DNA of 64,000 nt, taken from IMG/VR virus record IMGVR_UViG_3300036893_000013, positions 48,038-112,037 of that record; one strand, given 5' to 3'. Made by a program: the position numbers and the translations under genes. Below are positions 3,001 to 45,696 of this stretch, piece by piece. Every line of letters begins with the position of its first letter. Position 1 is the first letter of the stretch. This stretch comes from a virus. Under the pieces are notes generated by a model. The model ran no database searches and had not been told where the DNA came from. It worked only from the letters and a program-made list of their open reading frames with translations.

Positions 3001-3630
3001 TCCTATTAACTGTTCTACATTACCATTAGGATCAATGATGAAGGAGTTAAGTTCATAAGGAGTAAAATTGTACGGATTCAAGACAGCGTATAAGTTGCCG
3101 TTCGCTACTGCAATTTCTTGAAGAACAGTGGAATAAGGGATTCTCGTTTGAAGGGTATTAACCCATTTCTTCTGATTAGCTCCATCCCCCCAAAATAGAA
3201 CGTTCCCCACACTCTGCATATAACTCTGTCCAGAATACGGACTTTTATTCCAGATATCTATCTGACCGTTATTTGAGGCATCATATAAGGCAGATTTGGT
3301 ATCCACCATAGTTTTTATTTGTTCAGTATTAGCATTGAATAATCTAAACTCATAAAAACCATTTATATTACTCCACGTGTTACTATTCCACACGGAATTC
3401 CCCGGACGGCGAACCACTGTAAGTCGTTGGCTGAGTTCCAGATTTTCTCCCCCAAGAAAGGCATCTCCTCTAGGCCCGTAAAATTTCTCTTCCAAACGGG
3501 TAGAAGCGGCATCTCGTATAGCTGCGCGGTTGCTCCATAGCCCAGTAGTCCATCTTGCCCCCTGATAAAGAGCAGACTTCCTAGAAGGGCGGGGAGGTTG
3601 GGCACCGGCTACTTGTAGAGGATTAGGCAT
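1..3630 (-). CDS. Tail nozzle / tail tubular protein B-like (P22 gp10/T7 gp12 type) with large repeat insertion; 3' end beyond window
   Basis: Missing from the ORF track, probably because it has no stop in the window. Manual translation from ATG 3630: MPNPLQVAGAQPPRPSRK...ENLELSQRLTVVRRPGNSVW; the frame is open in every segment checked, including at base 1. RRPG motif, QSVGNVLFWGDG..KKW and WNWG segments, five GxGYxVG(D/E) repeats. Confidence 0.7.
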   Translation of the reverse strand, partial: MPNPLQVAGAQPPRPSRKSALYQGARWTTGLWSNRAAIRDAASTRLEEKFYGPRGDAFLGGENLELSQRLTVVRRPGNSVWNSNTWSNINGFYEFRLFNANTEQIKTMVDTKSALYDASNNGQIDIWNKSPYSGQSYMQSVGNVLFWGDGANQKKWVNTLQTRIPYSTVLQEIAVANGNLYAVLNPYNFTPYELNSFIIDPNGNVEQLIGTVVQLSSFYIYNSTFVFTMRATDVNSNPLPTASQVLQSGLQLYFSGDSLVTQVLGSTSVTLTIENIVGPINTASLYFGGQGYTVGEIVSLSQTTPAGSMNGQVKVTSVGTSAGAGYINGSNVSTTTSGIGVNCTLNITTSGGSLTGATVAVGGTGYAVGDFIFPEETSGSGGYFQVATVSISAVTGVTLCTGVATAIAIQVAGQGYYSATNIPTTATSGTGLAVNIVSSGTQFSAEVPNTYAGGPLTSASVAASGTGYSVGEAIYPVVPVGSPASGAVFLVESINGIPATIGLVYQGISFTGYTAASGLATTTSGTGTLATFNILTVSGGQIATFSLGSGGTGYNVGDLVYPTQVSGAGASYTVSTVSGTTITGLTVHNAGYLPYTVASGVSTTTNGTGTGATVNITGVLVGGITAGTLGTAGTGYAIGDRLFPTQSGTSGTAQFRVASLTGSTGGVATIQITDVGTGYSTENGVATTAGISGTGCTVNIVALGSSYYPPTTDLEIPTVNSGGNPISSYTANNAVQWPLTEGTTTIDGSALWINRGSSVDGGIVWNWGMAGGSTAPNVIVNNAVSGWKANTYYNRWQFIIITVSGSKYLQQLVDSGVSGGTAPWTTSSTIVGQITTDGTAKWKCLSNDSDTTLTWAAHTIYSSGHIIEDTPGSTNCVYQLQPYTGIMTQGSNFPVYYWQCNSQKNSDVGAAGELPNGPPGSTFNTPMSQNGTQPVSTATGSGTMSSFFLSAQGGTNAVEVGVFSYGDGTLSGTLSTLFPSAMENLSIAMLPVFIIPAPGTYTFTFGHQVAMFWGIGNGSISLNVTNITVNNNEVTVQCDRTLASLVSVGVQLTFAGLSNATFLNGETVSIDSVSGMTFTAPLNHSNYGPAADVGTADSGATLVPSAIGPMTWNNSGNPNTYNFSTGTPIKGYKIMSANYPSSGLSIASSIVQVTFPAAGVYPAEIQYGVWYHSTSGETLPTTSPALPFANNTISFYMVYSPPGSTINYNV

Positions 3631-23122: not shown

Positions 23123-23737
23123 TTAACTAACGCTAGCTGCGCTTTCATCGTGCTCTAGCGGCTTGAATATTCTTTCTGCTGTAATATTACCGTGACCGTC
23201 AAAGCCTATAGCTACAACGCCACCGGGCTTTACAACTAAACTTTTGTGATCCCCTGTCAATTGTGTTCCGACTTCATGTATAACGCTGCTATGAGCAACC
23301 ACGAATCCCGGTCCTATTTTTGCCGCGTGTTCAAAACATTCAGCTAGAACAGGTAGAATTCTGTCTTTGAATTCGTTGAGGCTTTCGCCTTCTGGAACCG
23401 ATTCGTCGGGGTTATTAATATATTTCTCTAACTCTTTTAGGTTTTCTTCGTTCTTAGGTTGACCAGAAAACTTTCCTAGATTCCACGCTCTTAGTTGATC
23501 TGTGTCTGTAGGTTCTATGTCTGTTCCTTTGGCTAAAATATTTGCCGTTTGGGTGGCCCTTTTTTTGTCTGAAGAAACAATGAAGGAGGGTTTGACCTCT
23601 TCGAGAAATTTTTTAATTTCCTCTGCGTCTTTAAATCCCTCTTCTACTAAAGGAATATTAGCCTCACCACGAAAAAGTCCTTTTTGGTTGTACAAAGTTT
23701 TTCCGTGACGTATGAGATATATGACTGGAGTAAGCAT
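23123..23737 (-). CDS. Histidine phosphatase (phosphoglycerate mutase family)
   Basis: IYLIRHG, SSDKKRATQTA, GESL..F..R, VAHS. Confidence 0.9.
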   Translation of the reverse strand: MLTPVIYLIRHGKTLYNQKGLFRGEANIPLVEEGFKDAEEIKKFLEEVKPSFIVSSDKKRATQTANILAKGTDIEPTDTDQLRAWNLGKFSGQPKNEENLKELEKYINNPDESVPEGESLNEFKDRILPVLAECFEHAAKIGPGFVVAHSSVIHEVGTQLTGDHKSLVVKPGGVVAIGFDGHGNITAERIFKPLEHDESAASVS

Positions 23738-23744
23738 ATTGAGT

Positions 23745-23984
23745 TTATTTACTTTTTGCTTCTCTTTCTCTTTTATATCTTGCGTCTTGTGAAACTTTCA
23801 TTCTCGCTCTATACTCAGGGTCCTCCCAGAGTTTTATGGCTCTGTGCAAGTATCCGCGAGGATTTGTCCTAGCAGAAGACTTATGACTAGTCCATCTGGT
23901 ACTTACATCATACGTCTTTCCAACATACCATTTATCATTAAGAATATTAGTTATTATGTAGATATAAAAATGTTTAGATTCCAT
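23745..23984 (-). pseudogene. Internally deleted GIY-YIG homing endonuclease remnant
   Basis: YIYIITN..YVGKT..RW..H..LHRAIK jumps directly to LWEDPEYR tail; catalytic Glu/Asn region missing; 79 aa. Confidence 0.7.
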
Positions 23985-24371
23985 TTAGCCTACTAGGATA
24001 AATTCACAAGGAGTACCTAGCTGGTTAGAAATAAGAGTTAGAGCAGATATACCATTAGTAGTAGTTACTTCTGAAAATGTAATTAAAGCTCCGGGGTCTA
24101 GAACCACAATACTAGCGGAACTGCCATTTGTAGGTGTCCACGACACAGTTAGAGTCGTACCGGCATTAGCAGACAAATTTTTTATATACAAAAACTCAAT
24201 AGGATTAATGGGTAAGACAACCGCATAAGCGGTGGTACCAACAATAACGCTTTGACCGTAAGTACTTATCTCACCGGTATAAGAGTTATTAAGCGGCTTA
24301 GACAAAGCCACACTCCCGGTCAAGTTATCTGTTAATTTTATTGCCCCTTGAATGGTTGCAGTAACCGACAT
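23985..24371 (-). CDS. Putative small virion (capsid-associated) protein
   Basis: First CDS downstream of MCP; beta-rich, FLYIKNL motif. Confidence 0.55.
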   Translation of the reverse strand: MSVTATIQGAIKLTDNLTGSVALSKPLNNSYTGEISTYGQSVIVGTTAYAVVLPINPIEFLYIKNLSANAGTTLTVSWTPTNGSSASIVVLDPGALITFSEVTTTNGISALTLISNQLGTPCEFILVG

Positions 24372-24402
24372 TTTAATCCTTTAAACTTTTTTCTTAAAAA
24401 TA

Positions 24403-24577
24403 CTAGCAGGGGAATGATCTTAGGAAGGTCTAAAATATCTTTGGCCCGCCTACTTTCCGGGAAATAGAGTTAGCTGTGTGCTTTCTTCTATTTGCCGGAA
24501 GTTTGGCGAAGATACTTTACTTAGCGCACTCCCCCGGCCAAGGGTTTGTGCATTCAGGTTCTTACGAACCCTGCTAG
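24403..24577 (-). ncRNA. Unknown structured RNA (~175 nt) with predicted pseudoknot
   Basis: Closing stem CTAGCAG(GG)/(CC)CTGCTAG, GGTTC-GTAA-GAACC GNRA hairpin, long inner stem, loop UUGGCC complementary to bulge GGCCAA; most G-U pairs favour the minus strand. Confidence 0.65.
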
Positions 24578-24604: not shown

Positions 24605-25594
24605 TTAGCTTGAGCTTGTGTTGGACAAGATTTTACGGAGGCGCATCACACTACCCGGAGGAGGTGTAATAGTGAATTTCACATTATAGGAAATCCAGCC
24701 ACCGATAAGTCTTGCAGGGTCTGACACCGAACCACCTTCAGGGGCCATCTGGATGTTCATACTGTAGTTCTTCTTATTTTTATCAGCCGGATTAGGACCC
24801 AAGAAGATACTGAGCAGAGCATCGTCGGCAAAGATGTACGTTGGATAGAACAAGTTGCCTGAAATGGTTGTAGGAGATGCTGTAGTGGTTTCCTTAAACT
24901 TAACGCCAGCGAATTCAAAAGGTGCATCGCGGTCAACAGCCGAGAAAAGCTTCTTCTGAGTATCACTCTGACGCTTCATAATATCGGTCAAACCGTTGAA
25001 GCTAGCATCGTTATACACGTCATGGGTGACGAGAGGATTGATGATACCCGCGTAGGTATCGCCCTCGAAGAACCGGACGTTGATGCTCGACAACTGTTGA
25101 GCGACAGTACGAATGTTAGAAGCGGTAAGAAAGGTACCGGTTGCAAGGGTCTGAAGAACCGTGCTATCAACACCTGTAGTGGAGTCAGCCGCAGTAGACA
25201 CAAGCAGGTTAAGGGTGAGTGCCAAGCGATAGTTCATTTCCTCAGCAAGGCTGGACAGAAGACCCTTATCATCAAGAGCGGTATCCATCAACAGATCAGA
25301 ACTGTTAGTGTAGTCAGCATACTGACCAATAACAGCCTGAATCTTGACTGCGCTTTCAGGAACCGGCGAACCAACAAAACCTTCAGTTGATTGCTGGATA
25401 TTAGAACCCAAAAGGTTATAGGAGAAGAACTGTATAGTGTTACCACTATGCATGGGAAGCGGCCACTGTTTAGTGCAGCCCAAGAAGGGGGTTGACTGCT
25501 TCAAGTTAGGAATTGCTTTACGCTCGTAATAGATAGCTAGAGCGTTAGGAAAGTTGCCGGAAGCAACCGTATTTACTGCTGGTGAATAGGCCAT
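24605..25594 (-). CDS. Major capsid protein (N4-gp56/P22-coat-like HK97 fold)
   Basis: LPMHSGNTIQF, EG..G, IGQYADY..SDLL, IINP..HD, FAGVKF.ET; follows scaffold and portal. Confidence 0.85.
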   Translation of the reverse strand: MAYSPAVNTVASGNFPNALAIYYERKAIPNLKQSTPFLGCTKQWPLPMHSGNTIQFFSYNLLGSNIQQSTEGFVGSPVPESAVKIQAVIGQYADYTNSSDLLMDTALDDKGLLSSLAEEMNYRLALTLNLLVSTAADSTTGVDSTVLQTLATGTFLTASNIRTVAQQLSSINVRFFEGDTYAGIINPLVTHDVYNDASFNGLTDIMKRQSDTQKKLFSAVDRDAPFEFAGVKFKETTTASPTTISGNLFYPTYIFADDALLSIFLGPNPADKNKKNYSMNIQMAPEGGSVSDPARLIGGWISYNVKFTITPPPGSVMRLRKILSNTSSS

Positions 25595-25611
25595 TATGGT
25601 GCCTTAAAAAA

Positions 25612-26754
25612 TTATTGCCGACCTTGTTGCTGGGCGCGTAACTGAGCCGCAGCAATCATCCTTAGGTCTGCTAAGGATATATTTTGAAGGTCTACGTCTG
25701 TCAGCGGCTTCTCTTCTGGAACCACTGCTGGAGTACTACTCCTAGCGGGAATTCCTAAGCCCACTGGCTGTCCGGTAGTTGTAGCAATACGCTGCGGGGC
25801 TGGCACGGATGGACCGGGTACAGTCACTGGTTCGGGTTTATGGGTTGCAACAGAACGGGGAGACTCTGGACGTTCAAACAATTCGCTTTCAACCAGTTCT
25901 TCTTTCGCTGTTTCAAGATTCTCTAGAGTCCACTTACCTCTTTTGTAAACTTCATAAATACAATCATCTACGATAGCTTGAGGGGTGTGTTTTGTAATCT
26001 TTTTATTCAGATAAGATTTTGCCATTCTAGCGACTAATATACGCATATTTGCTTCATTGACAGCATTATCTGCGGTCGTTACGTATTCTAGATAGTCAGG
26101 ATTCTGATTGACAAATTCTGAATTTACTTCGTCTATATTAGCCTTTATATTCTGGGCTTCTACTATTCTTTTAGCTTCAGGGGCAGACTTCAAGGCTTCG
26201 GCAAACTCGTCTGGATTAAGTCCAAATCTTTTCTTTACCCAAGCATCGATAGCTTCTGAAGGATTATCCTGTAGTTTATTTTTAATTTCGTATACATCGT
26301 CTGCGGAAAGATTTTCAACTTTCGCTGTATTTCTTACCGGAGCGGCAGTAAGAGTAGCCTCTTCACCGCCTAAAAGTTTCTCTTTCTTAAGTCTATGAAT
26401 GGCTTTACTTGCTTCTAACTTACCTTCAGCTAAAGTGAAAATCAATTCATCTTTATTAGGTCCATAGAAATTTTCCGCTGTACTATTAGCTTCGCCGGAA
26501 GTCAGGGTTGCTCTCCAACCTCTGCTGGTCTTTTCTAACGTAATGCTGCCACCGTTCTTAGCTATTCTAGTTTCAGGTGAAGTTTCTGTTGGAACTTCTG
26601 GGACTTCTGGAACTTCTGGAACTGTCGGGACCTTGAAATTTTCTGGCTTATCTAATTCTAAAGGAATTTCTTCAAAGAAATCATTACCTGTAGGATTGGC
26701 TAATGATATTCCGCTAGCCCATTCATTGAAAACATCTTTATCTTCGTTCGGCAT
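25612..26754 (-). CDS. Putative capsid scaffolding protein
   Basis: Acidic helical protein immediately upstream of MCP, Pro-rich tail ending DLQNISLADLR. Confidence 0.6.
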   Translation of the reverse strand: MPNEDKDVFNEWASGISLANPTGNDFFEEIPLELDKPENFKVPTVPEVPEVPEVPTETSPETRIAKNGGSITLEKTSRGWRATLTSGEANSTAENFYGPNKDELIFTLAEGKLEASKAIHRLKKEKLLGGEEATLTAAPVRNTAKVENLSADDVYEIKNKLQDNPSEAIDAWVKKRFGLNPDEFAEALKSAPEAKRIVEAQNIKANIDEVNSEFVNQNPDYLEYVTTADNAVNEANMRILVARMAKSYLNKKITKHTPQAIVDDCIYEVYKRGKWTLENLETAKEELVESELFERPESPRSVATHKPEPVTVPGPSVPAPQRIATTTGQPVGLGIPARSSTPAVVPEEKPLTDVDLQNISLADLRMIAAAQLRAQQQGRQ

Positions 26755-26777
26755 TAGTCCTCATTGTCTTAAAATAC

Positions 26778-27113
26778 TTAAGCCCAATCATCGTTATCAT
26801 TTGGTATATTTCTAATCTCGCCTAATGTTATTTTTGCCATCTCACCTGCTTGTATAGCAGATGATACTGCTTCTTTAACATTATTGTAGGCATTTCTAAC
26901 TGAATACCAGACAGAAAAGGCAGCTAAGATAGCTTTATCATTTCCCGGTTGTTGCTCGCCTAGTTGAGTTAGGGCATCCTCTTCGATGCTTTGAAAGGAT
27001 TTATCTATGATATCCCAGCCTTCAGTAGTAAGAGTAAATCGCAGGGCGTTGGCAGTATTTATCTGTTCTAGTAATTGTTCTTCTACATTTTGATCGTAGT
27101 CATAGTCAGCCAT
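26778..27113 (-). CDS. Hypothetical protein (portal-adjacent, Bbp19-like position)
   Basis: TEGWDII motif, between portal and scaffold. Confidence 0.6.
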   Translation of the reverse strand: MADYDYDQNVEEQLLEQINTANALRFTLTTEGWDIIDKSFQSIEEDALTQLGEQQPGNDKAILAAFSVWYSVRNAYNNVKEAVSSAIQAGEMAKITLGEIRNIPNDNDDWA

Positions 27114-27116
27114 ACT

Positions 27117-29210
27117 TTACTCCGGACCAGATTCAGAACCAAAACCGACACCACCGGGGCCGGGATTTCCAGTTAGTGCTTCCGGGGTTGCGCTTACTTC
27201 GAAAGAACGCCTCAAAACCTCGTTTGCGGCTCTAGCCATATTATTTTGTTCGGCAAGAGACTGCTGATGCTCAAACTTAGCTTGCTGCTGAGCATTGTCG
27301 TTCTGCATCTTAGCTTGCTGCATAGCTGCCGGTTGATTCTGCTGGGCCTGTTGTTTTTCTTGTGGAGTCATATCTATAATAACGCTATAGAAGGTTTTCC
27401 AACCGCTGGCCTCAAACATCATTTTCAGAACTTGTACAGTGTCTACTTTCTTACCTTCGGAGGCTAGGGATTGTACAATAAATTGGTTCTGGAGAAATTG
27501 CGTCATAAGGGGAAGTGACTGAGCCATTGCTCTACGTTCACTTAACTTACTTCCCGCTTGTACATCGAATATAAGTCTTGCGTGGCGAATTTCTTCTATA
27601 TTACCACCGGTAGCAAAATACTGATTCTGCAACTCTTCGTTTAGAATTTTTTCTACCATTCCAGCAGGGAGTAGTCTTCTGTTCATTTCATCTAATCGGT
27701 AAAGAAAAGGAATGAACACTTGCTGGGCAAACTTCTCTAAAAATTCTGAGATTTGAACCCCTTGACCGCCTGTGATGGCGTTTGCTCCCGCTGCGGTTCT
27801 GGCAAGGTTGCTATGTCCAGTACTACCCGCAATACCTTGTGATGTAATTTCTCCGGCACCCGAGTTTTGTTCGACTCTAGCCTGAGACAAAGCTAGATGT
27901 TGCCCAGCTTCCGGAACTACGGGAGGTCTTTCTAACGGTTTAAAATCGTCTGCTTCATCTACTTCGAAGACCCGACCGGGATGAATACGAATACTCTGGG
28001 TCGGAATGCTTTTACCACGCTTGCGGGTATAGACTCCTGCAAGGGCGATGGCGGTTGAATCAAGCCATGTATTAACAATTCCTTGCTGAAGTCGCTGCTC
28101 TGATCCAATTGTTCTAGCGAGTCCAAGACCATAGAAAGCTCCCGGAACATCCCACCAGTTGACTGAGAAGAAAGGGATTTCTCCGTAGGGATTAGGTCCA
28201 TTGCAAATAACTTTCTTTTGTTGAACAACGATGATGATCTTTTCTTTATCCCAACGCTCTAATACTTCAAGGGGTTTTTCGAAAGGATCGTCAGTAGCTT
28301 GGGTCCAACGGGGGTTAGCCCTCATATCCCAGACTGCATTTATCCCTGTCTGTTCATCATAAGCCGGAATAGCTTCCTCTGCGGGAGGCATGAACCAACT
28401 CATAACTTCTTGACGGGAGGGTAGAGTATAACCCGGAACATCTCTAAGTTTTTCTAAATCATTGAATGTCATATACATACGGTGTATGACAAACTTAGCT
28501 TCGCGAATATCTGGGGTTCTTAGTGTGGGATCAACCAGAATATCTTTGATGCTCGTGATATTCTCAAATCGTGGTTGTTCGACACTTATTTCATCTGTTT
28601 TTTCTTCTAGAGGAGTATCGGGATCGTGGTAGGTAGTGTCAGGAACTCCGGGAATAGTAGACGGAATAACTGTTTTCTTATCTTCCCTATCATAGTAAGT
28701 ATTTTTCTTTTTATAACTACTCCAACCCCACTTCCAGATATTAGTACCATATAAGCAGGCGTTGAGAACACCACGACGGACTTCTTCTTTGAAGTTAATT
28801 TCTTCTAACTGATAACCAATAATATCCGATATGGCTTCTACAGTTTTATATTGAGTGCCGGGTCTGGGTTGAAAGATGAAGGGAGGATCATCATAAAACA
28901 ACCCATTTAGAATTTGAGGAGTAAGAGAGTTTACTGCTTTGGCGACGGTATAGAAAGGGATATTAGCTCTTTCTAGCTGTGTGCCTTCCCAATATTTAGG
29001 AACAGTGGTAGACTGATATACAATAGAAGCTGAATTCCATCCAGCAATCCATTGCTTAGCTGCTTTAGCAGTTTCCGCGCTATAGGTGTCTCGTAGGACT
29101 AGAGTGAGTGCAGGGTCTTCGGCCCATTTCCCTGTCTTAAGGATTTGGGAAATTACTTCCTCCGTTAGTATCGGAGTGTTGCCGTTTCCTGCATCATCTA
29201 TTAGAGCCAA
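27117..29210 (-). CDS. Portal protein (podovirus-type)
   Basis: 697 aa; LYGTNIWKWGW, NPYGEIPF, FYGLG, RTAAGA, Gln-rich C-terminal barrel; downstream of TerL. Confidence 0.9.
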   Translation of the reverse strand: MALIDDAGNGNTPILTEEVISQILKTGKWAEDPALTLVLRDTYSAETAKAAKQWIAGWNSASIVYQSTTVPKYWEGTQLERANIPFYTVAKAVNSLTPQILNGLFYDDPPFIFQPRPGTQYKTVEAISDIIGYQLEEINFKEEVRRGVLNACLYGTNIWKWGWSSYKKKNTYYDREDKKTVIPSTIPGVPDTTYHDPDTPLEEKTDEISVEQPRFENITSIKDILVDPTLRTPDIREAKFVIHRMYMTFNDLEKLRDVPGYTLPSRQEVMSWFMPPAEEAIPAYDEQTGINAVWDMRANPRWTQATDDPFEKPLEVLERWDKEKIIIVVQQKKVICNGPNPYGEIPFFSVNWWDVPGAFYGLGLARTIGSEQRLQQGIVNTWLDSTAIALAGVYTRKRGKSIPTQSIRIHPGRVFEVDEADDFKPLERPPVVPEAGQHLALSQARVEQNSGAGEITSQGIAGSTGHSNLARTAAGANAITGGQGVQISEFLEKFAQQVFIPFLYRLDEMNRRLLPAGMVEKILNEELQNQYFATGGNIEEIRHARLIFDVQAGSKLSERRAMAQSLPLMTQFLQNQFIVQSLASEGKKVDTVQVLKMMFEASGWKTFYSVIIDMTPQEKQQAQQNQPAAMQQAKMQNDNAQQQAKFEHQQSLAEQNNMARAANEVLRRSFEVSATPEALTGNPGPGGVGFGSESGPE

Positions 29211-35521: not shown

Positions 35522-35597
35522 TGGCTCGCCCCGCTGGATTCGGACCAGCATCTCCAGAATTAACAGTTCTGTGCATTGCCAGTTATGCTAGAGGCAA
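35522..35597 (-). tRNA. tRNA-Asn(GTT), T-loop variant
   Basis: TTGCCTC TA GCAT AACTGGCA ATGC A CAGAA CTGTTAA TTCTG GAGAT GCTGG TCCGAAT CCAGC GGGGCGA G CCA; G73; C at position 55. Confidence 0.85.
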
Positions 35598-36769: not shown

Positions 36770-36858
36770 TGGTCGGGGTAGGAGGACTCGAACCTCCAGT
36801 GCTCTTAAGCTCCTGTTTCCAAAACAGGTCGGCTACCATTTACCGATTTACACCCTCG
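36770..36858 (-). tRNA. Atypical tRNA-Pro(TGG) with long variable arm
   Basis: Anticodon arm CCTGT-TTTGGAA-ACAGG, T arm GGAGG-TTCGAGT-CCTCC, G72/A73/CCA; variable arm AGCTTAAGAGCACT; irregular 5' acceptor/linker. Confidence 0.7.
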
Positions 36859-45388: not shown

Positions 45389-45696
45389 CGGATCGGCGCG
45401 CAAAATTTTTTGCGTAGGGAAGGAGGTAGCATAAATGCCCAGACTTTAGCTTTTCTTGGCATTAGAAGCCAGAATGTTAATACTGCCCAAATCTTGAATC
45501 TCATTCAAGAAGCGCTGGGCGGGGGTGATCATTTTTCCTTCCACTCTGAATGAGCACCATCATTCTGATCGAGATAGGCGCAAGGCTGAGATGCCTGTCG
45601 CATTCGCCTAATCGCAGAGGACACGGGCGAACCTGCCCGTGAAATGCGGAGTACCCAAGGGTACGCGGTTCCAATCCCGCATGAAAAGAGGTTTTT

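Follow-up and report, generated by a model that had tools for sequence, protein, structure and literature searches.

A covariation-supported RNA family with a loop–bulge pseudoknot in the late structural operon of uncultured phages

What is encoded in the 233 nt that separate the major capsid protein gene of an uncultured phage from the next gene of its late structural operon? The locus lies in a 64,000-nucleotide stretch (hereafter the window) of a 112-kb IMG/VR virus record with an estimated completeness of 98%. A preliminary description, made from the letters of the window, had placed here a multistem RNA in which a hairpin loop pairs with a bulge of a neighbouring arm, and its coordinates (24403–24577, minus strand) and motifs proved exact. 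Using homologue searches, comparative folding and covariance modelling, we find that this element belongs to what comparative sequence evidence indicates is a real and well-supported RNA family, with a covariation-supported pseudoknot and confined to a small clade of uncultured phages. Below we describe its setting, the support for its fold, its relation to known RNAs and the roles that it may play.

Genomic setting of the element

All genes that flank the element in the window lie, like the element itself, on the minus strand. In the direction of transcription, an SU10-type portal gene (27117–29210) is followed by a gene for a 380-aa protein, then by the major capsid protein gene (24605–25594; 329 aa, without intron; phrog_1357 major head protein, E = 6e-13) and, after the 233-nt gap, by a gene for a 128-aa protein (p128; 23985–24371) with its own Shine-Dalgarno (SD) sequence and ATG. 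The capsid protein shares 35% identity with the protein annotated as major head protein in Tunturiibacter phage Tunturi_3, a podovirus with an Acidobacteriota host and the nearest isolate, and its reading frame is intact: residues 1–329 align end to end with relatives, and the frame closes with a TAA stop codon. p128 has no Pfam or PHROG match. Its AlphaFold2 model is all-beta (pLDDT 77), the fold matches are weak, of jelly-roll or beta-sandwich type and chiefly to uncharacterised phage proteins, and from its position it is probably a beta-sandwich capsid accessory or decoration protein. A truncated GIY-YIG fragment of 79 aa (23745–23984, minus strand) abuts the p128 stop codon, and the large terminase is full length (phrog_38, residues 17–585 of 654). 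Inside the structural module, just downstream of p128, sits a histidine-phosphatase superfamily gene (23123–23737, minus strand; His_Phos_1, E = 1e-33), a position that is conserved, with ORFs of about 200 aa following p128 in the related loci L001, L002, L009 and L012. Elsewhere the window holds a Twister-P5 ribozyme match (45613–45680, plus strand; 43.7 bits against an Rfam gathering score of 37.6) and two tRNA matches (35525–35597 and 36781–36845, minus strand), the second at 29.9 bits against a gathering score of 29.

Throughout the family the element lies between the major capsid gene and p128, with immediate neighbours that vary. Immediately upstream lies the capsid gene in some members and, in others, a small ORF that ends with a stop codon in or at the outer helix of the RNA; in L005, L006, L008, L009 and L012 the stretch from the capsid gene to the element holds a GIY-YIG gene as well as one or two small ORFs. 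The placement directly after the major capsid gene that had first been described is thus true of the window but is not a conserved feature, and these intervening genes weaken the suggestion of a role tied specifically to the capsid gene. The GIY-YIG genes of the relatives are free-standing homing-endonuclease genes of 176–250 aa (L009:4717–5247, L006:2058–2783, L012:5153–5905), whose products might recognise the invariant blocks of the element as target sites. The small ORFs, absent from the window, encode 39–60 aa that are rich in Ala, Pro and Glu at the N-terminus and conserved at the C-terminus, which ends in LADHGIH(F/L)K (L009:5247–5366, L012:6083–6226, and L006:3128–3283 and 3273–3455, a tandem duplicate). 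The capsid genes of relatives are, moreover, split by group I introns into two to four or more exons, the window's copy being intron-free. Intron-bearing capsid regions occur in L006, L008, L009, L011 and L012–L018 (for example L016:3577–6293 and L012:4625–4814), and the Rfam model Intron_gpI (RF00028) finds 14 intron segments in them, six in L016 alone, which makes the capsid gene of these relatives unusually intron-dense.

On its downstream side the element keeps a fixed relation to a translation start. In every member an SD sequence and a start codon follow within 16–35 nt, and a run of U (4–6 U within about 9 nt) begins 0–3 nt after the closing helix; in the window these parts span 24369–24402 (minus strand), with the U-run at 24393–24402, the SD sequence AAGGA at 24377–24381 and the p128 ATG at 24369–24371. 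The gene so started is p128 in 12 members, a 63-aa ORF with a signal peptide in L012 and a 50-aa ORF in L016 and L091; p128 lies further downstream in these last three. Between the element and p128 in L012 there is a small ORF (L012:6287–6610) with a lipoprotein-like signal peptide (MKKIFILCFLALILACG...) that looks like a moron. A motif of the rough form A/U-AUUUUU(U)AAG, of which the U-run is part, recurs 10–30 nt upstream of the p128, capsid and 380-aa start codons of the window (24393–24402, about 25605–25625 and about 26770–26790, minus strand). Its presence before the capsid and 380-aa genes as well leads us to regard it as one component of a strong site for translation start, where it might act as a strong enhancer of initiation or as a signal of late genes.

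Comparative support for the fold and its loop–bulge contact

Related copies were not to be found by DNA similarity. The intergenic region matched nothing among 50,697 phage records, and BLASTN of the region against the first loci, 18 viral loci collected from capsid-protein homologues, gave a single 43-nt match. Aligning the spaces upstream of p128 homologues exposed the family, with the invariant blocks CCUUGGCCGG and CGGGCCAAG standing within otherwise diverged sequence. Members were gathered from capsid and p128 homologues, by scanning for motifs, by scanning viral and metagenome contigs with p128 alignments, and with the covariance model R1; a scan of viral contigs with the single p128 protein had returned nothing where the alignment-based scan succeeded. 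The family as defined here comprises 19 matches, which reduce to 15 distinct full-length sequences, the divergent lineage L016/L091 included, all on uncultured phage contigs and with one element per genome. Motif scans for further variants of the kissing pair returned only known members and chance matches, and the 53 motif matches in 185,579 GTDB species genomes were all chance matches, none fitting the model, so that no copy was found there. Model searches of Tunturi_3 and of three related genomes found the element absent. More distant phages that carry p128, among them a complete 62-kb genome and Tunturi_3, thus exist without it, and the family is small and limited to one clade.

The folding energy of the window's copy is consistent with a structured RNA. 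The 175-nt stretch has a folding energy of -62.6 kcal/mol, whereas 200 dinucleotide shuffles of it give -43.1 +/- 4.2 (z = -4.6). The opposite strand gives a z of -4.3, and energy alone therefore cannot choose between the strands. Nor does it choose between folds, the one first described and the comparative one being isoenergetic in the window (-55.5 and -56.1 kcal/mol). The choice comes from the relatives. A GNRA hairpin GGUUC-GUAA-GAACC (24557–24570), part of the fold first described, competes with helix b in the window and is found nowhere else, and the proposed helix GAAUG/CAUUC is shared by the window and L002 only; in place of both, relatives form a middle helix and helix b. The other parts of that description, namely the outer helix, both parts of the second hairpin, and the long arm with its bulge, were borne out against the 14 other distinct members.

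According to the comparative evidence, an RNA domain that folds independently is encoded here on the gene strand; it measures about 175 nt, or about 205 nt when its flanks are included. In the predicted structure a long closing stack (the outer and middle helices, with a 7-nt 3' bulge between them, and helix b) leads into a three-way junction with two arms, hairpin c and arm d, which a 6-bp kiss holds firmly alongside each other. The outer helix, first described as CUAGCAG/CUGCUAG, extends to 9 bp in the window (CUAGCAGGG at 24569–24577 paired with CCCUGCUAG at 24403–24411). Across the family it has 6–13 bp in 15 of 15 members and at least eight different sequences, among them CUAGCAGGG, GCUAGUAGG, GGGUGG, GGGCGG and a 13-bp version in L032. 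The single-stranded 3' bulge between the outer and middle helices reads AGAUCAUUC in the window (24412–24420) and is a conserved 7-nt UACAUCC or UUACUCC in relatives; inspection by eye for a pairing partner (GGAU, GGAG and GAAU were the candidates) showed none that is consistent across members. The middle helix, of 3–4 bp, covaries (UUUC/GAAA, AUC/GAU, UCG/CGA, CCC/GGG). MAFFT could not bring the closing helix, the middle helix and the 3' bulge into columns, and these three parts rest on duplex predictions for each sequence and on inspection. In helix b, formed in the window by UAAGAA (24559–24564) and UUCCUA (24421–24426) with one A.C mismatch, all six pairs change on both sides, with 83% of cells paired and variants such as GUAGAA/UUCUAC, GCGGGA/UCCCGC and GAGA/UCUC.

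The two arms differ in how tightly they are constrained. Hairpin c (24520–24557) consists of three short helices with A-rich internal loops between them and a UUGGCC cap: in the window 2 bp, an internal loop, 3 bp (the GCAC/GUGC region), a second internal loop, 3 bp (CCC/GGG) and the 6-nt loop. Its helices covary (for example CCC/GGG, CGC/GCG, UUC/GAA), it is 38–40 nt long, and its segments have equal lengths in nearly all members. Arm d (24431–24519) is built from an 11-bp lower stem, a U opposite a 6-nt 3' bulge, a CGC/GCG clamp, a distal stem and a tip, with double-sided changes in 9 of the 11 lower-stem pairs. The distal stem is variable (55–63 nt), and the tip loop is conserved, as GC[ACAYM]GC (24473–24481). 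Sequence conservation is also found in the junction strands UC-AAAA, UAGAUU and AAGACC, the last nearly invariant across the family; in the window the junction strand GACC (24427–24430) directly adjoins the 3' strand of helix b. The pyrimidine-rich segment that the two form (GACCUCCU-like) has a generic likeness to an anti-SD sequence.

Taken over the model-based alignment, 86.8% of pair cells hold standard pairs, compared with 33–45% in controls in which the partners were slid by 1–3 columns, and double-sided changes occur in 31 of 41 pairs, values that none of 500 shuffles reached. Compensatory changes across most helices indicate that selection acts on the RNA fold itself, and the comparative support is unusually clean for only 15 sequences. 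A genuine multistem RNA with a loop–bulge pseudoknot, beyond what a terminator would require, is accordingly upheld by covariation in the 15 distinct members; neither a lack of covariation or conservation nor a folding energy like that of shuffled sequence was seen. The strand is favoured on two counts. G.U and A.C cells number 27 and 21 over the whole structure, which is not decisive; seven A.C cells in c1 look like a one-column register error of the alignment. In the well-aligned arm d (d1 and d2) the ratio of 11 to 1 favours the gene strand. The fixed relation to the downstream start site favours it as well, and it is the strand of all flanking genes.

The contact between the two arms pairs the loop UUGGCC of hairpin c (24536–24541) with the bulge GGCCAA on the 3' side of arm d (24441–24446). 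Both are invariant in 13 of the 15 distinct sequences. L016 and L091 have the loop UUGCCC and the bulge GGGCAA instead, so that the fourth kiss pair has turned from G-C to C-G and all six pairs are still Watson-Crick. The complementarity that had first been noted in the window is therefore kept in all 15 members through one compensatory change: the five kiss pairs that were counted are paired in every sequence, four of them invariant and one present as G-C in 13 and C-G in two. Since the exchange in L016/L091 represents one evolutionary event, the support for the kiss is real but thin. The same exchange removes the GGCC palindrome; what is conserved is thus not the ability of identical loops to pair with one another. 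An intramolecular kiss is the most likely form, judging from the lengths of hairpin c and the lower d stem, which are constant in nearly all members, as such a dock would require, while the outer helix and the distal arm vary.

Relation to known RNAs

At gathering thresholds, the 4227 models of Rfam 15 find in the whole window only the two tRNAs and the Twister-P5 motif, all outside the element. Relaxing the limit to E <= 10 yields one chance lncRNA match outside the element in a search of the element with 200 nt on either side, and nothing meaningful for the L009 and L016 copies. The impression that the RNA fits no known riboswitch or ribozyme consensus thus agrees with the lack of an Rfam 15 match for three members, on which we regard the element as a new RNA family and fold; "new" refers here to the family and the fold and not to a demonstrated new mechanism. 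The catalogue of Fremin et al. 2023 (PMC10690425) lists about 10,000 unnamed candidate structured RNAs from IMG/VR, many of them candidate leaders and five upstream of a major capsid protein family, and the element may already be among these unnamed candidates.

In its general plan the element resembles the purine (add-type) riboswitch and other three-way-junction aptamers, which likewise have a closing helix, a junction with conserved strands, and parallel arms held by a distal tertiary pairing, and in which the pyrimidine-rich 3' strand of the closing helix could alternatively pair with a downstream SD sequence. In contrast to these aptamers, the element is about three times larger, has an additional long bulged closing stack, makes its contact between a hairpin loop and an internal bulge (6 bp) and not between two loops, and has no Rfam match. 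As a structured leader directly before a gene needed in set amounts it also recalls the T4 gp32 leader pseudoknot and P22 scaffolding autoregulation. However, the downstream gene varies among members of the family, and the gp32 pseudoknot is a far simpler structure.

Possible roles in the late message

We tentatively favour the view that the element works in cis, as a domain of the late mRNA through which expression of the next cistron is controlled. It would be transcribed within the late polycistronic message, since 16–35 nt leave no room for a promoter before the next start codon, and would act in cis on the cistron that follows, usually the gene for the 128-aa putative capsid-accessory protein. 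In this mechanism the pre-folded, kiss-locked domain would insulate the strong U-run/SD start site downstream, helix b would sequester its own anti-SD-like 3' strand, and the compact 5' structure might protect the downstream message or bind a factor. At the conserved junction, translation or decay could be tuned by a small ligand or by a protein, for example a structural protein not yet assembled, and such tuning would set the ratio of accessory to capsid protein. In line with this proposal, an SD sequence and ATG lie 16–35 nt downstream even where the downstream gene differs (L012, L016), and the start motif shared with the capsid and 380-aa genes marks that gene as highly expressed. We found no alternative, switching conformation with covariation, and a fold as stable as this one (about -56 kcal/mol without the kiss) is more in keeping with a constitutive structure than with a switch. 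The proposal is weakened by the related phages, one with a complete genome, that bear p128 and live without the element, and since the downstream gene is not always p128, an operator specific to p128 is doubtful. The invariance of the loop and junction, moreover, would be equally expected of a ribozyme, an aptamer or a trans-acting RNA.

If the element does not serve the next cistron in this way, it may mark the end of the preceding message or belong to an RNA that acts apart from it. As a partial terminator or attenuator, or a stabiliser of the 3' end of the capsid message, the closing helix and U-run would stop or pause the polymerase or block 3' exonucleases and leave more capsid mRNA than downstream mRNA. 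The U-run in every member, the moderately GC-rich closing helix and the location after the most highly expressed gene all fit, but we consider this unlikely: a terminator consensus scan calls nothing at the element, the "stem" encloses about 160 nt, which sets it apart from known intrinsic terminators, similar U-run/AAG motifs with no helix of this kind in front of them are found ahead of the capsid and 380-aa genes, and all downstream structural genes need transcription through the element. Furthermore, the upstream gene is not the capsid gene in several relatives, and L001, L002 and L010 have a separate small GC-rich hairpin right after the capsid stop codon, so that the element is not needed as a 3' hairpin of that message. 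To a similar degree improbable is a processed, stable trans-acting RNA, including a particle RNA like the pRNA of phi29 (RF00044) with "hand in hand" intermolecular pairing. The likeness is considerable, for pRNA is 174 nt long, its bulged terminal helix is formed by the 5' and 3' ends, and its parts include a three-way junction and a hairpin loop complementary to the bulge loop of the other arm (PMC5066667), a size similar to that of the element and parts that the element shares with covariation support; the loop–bulge complementarity is kept through compensatory change, as in the pRNA loop pairs, and the element, whose neighbours vary on either side, behaves like a self-contained module. Yet no member matches pRNA or any other Rfam family by sequence or covariance model, even at E <= 10, the order of the arms is reversed with the bulge on the other strand, and the element lies within a late structural operon with no room for its own promoter, whereas pRNA is an early transcript from near the genome end. 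The phage has a canonical, full-length large terminase, an essential motor part would hardly be missing from related genomes, one of them complete, as the element is, and an intramolecular dock agrees with the constant lengths of hairpin c and the lower d stem.

More doubtful still is a new self-cleaving ribozyme, or a substrate of a host RNase, that would cut the late transcript between the capsid and downstream cistrons. Pistol and hammerhead ribozymes are frequent in phage genomes, and the same window holds a Twister-P5 match. An invariant unpaired junction held by a loop–bulge contact does recall stems I and II of the hammerhead and the pseudoknot of pistol, in which a hairpin loop pairs with the internal loop or bulge of a neighbouring helix and so organises a conserved core. 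Against cleavage, however, the junction strands lack the hammerhead core CUGANGA and the pistol core consensus, there is no match to an Rfam ribozyme family, the pseudoknot partner lies on the opposite helix strand from that of pistol, and about 200 nt exceeds the known small self-cleaving classes. A relic of a mobile element, whether a degenerate group I intron or a homing-endonuclease cassette with a conserved DNA target, devoid of RNA function, would be in keeping with the many group I introns detectable with Rfam in the capsid genes of relatives, with the GIY-YIG genes beside the element there and with the 79-aa GIY-YIG remnant after p128 in the window, but appears very improbable. Its single-copy, syntenic site and the compensatory changes across most helices speak against such a relic, as do a helix topology that differs from the group I core, the capsid ORF's own stop codon and p128's own start codon, and Intron_gpI matches the element of no member. 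A group I intron proper was rejected: none of the 14 RF00028 segments overlaps the element, the window, L009 and L016 copies give no match, and the element interrupts no gene.

Conserved RNAs of about 200 nt other than introns, riboswitches and known ribozymes are uncommon, above all those that combine a multi-helix junction with an established tertiary pairing, and have repeatedly led to new biochemistry. The one described here belongs to the late structural operon of phages that have hardly been studied and is short enough for direct synthesis and for tests of folding, cleavage, multimerisation, and ligand or protein binding. Alongside the cis-acting leader that we tentatively favour, there is some chance, though not a large one, that the element founds a new class of large functional phage RNA, be it a ribozyme, an aptamer that senses a ligand or protein, or a self-assembling particle-associated RNA. 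In each of these forms the covarying loop–bulge kiss would be the key architectural contact, the carriers would be phages distantly related to an Acidobacteriota phage, and an aptamer of this kind would govern the expression of a capsid-accessory gene.
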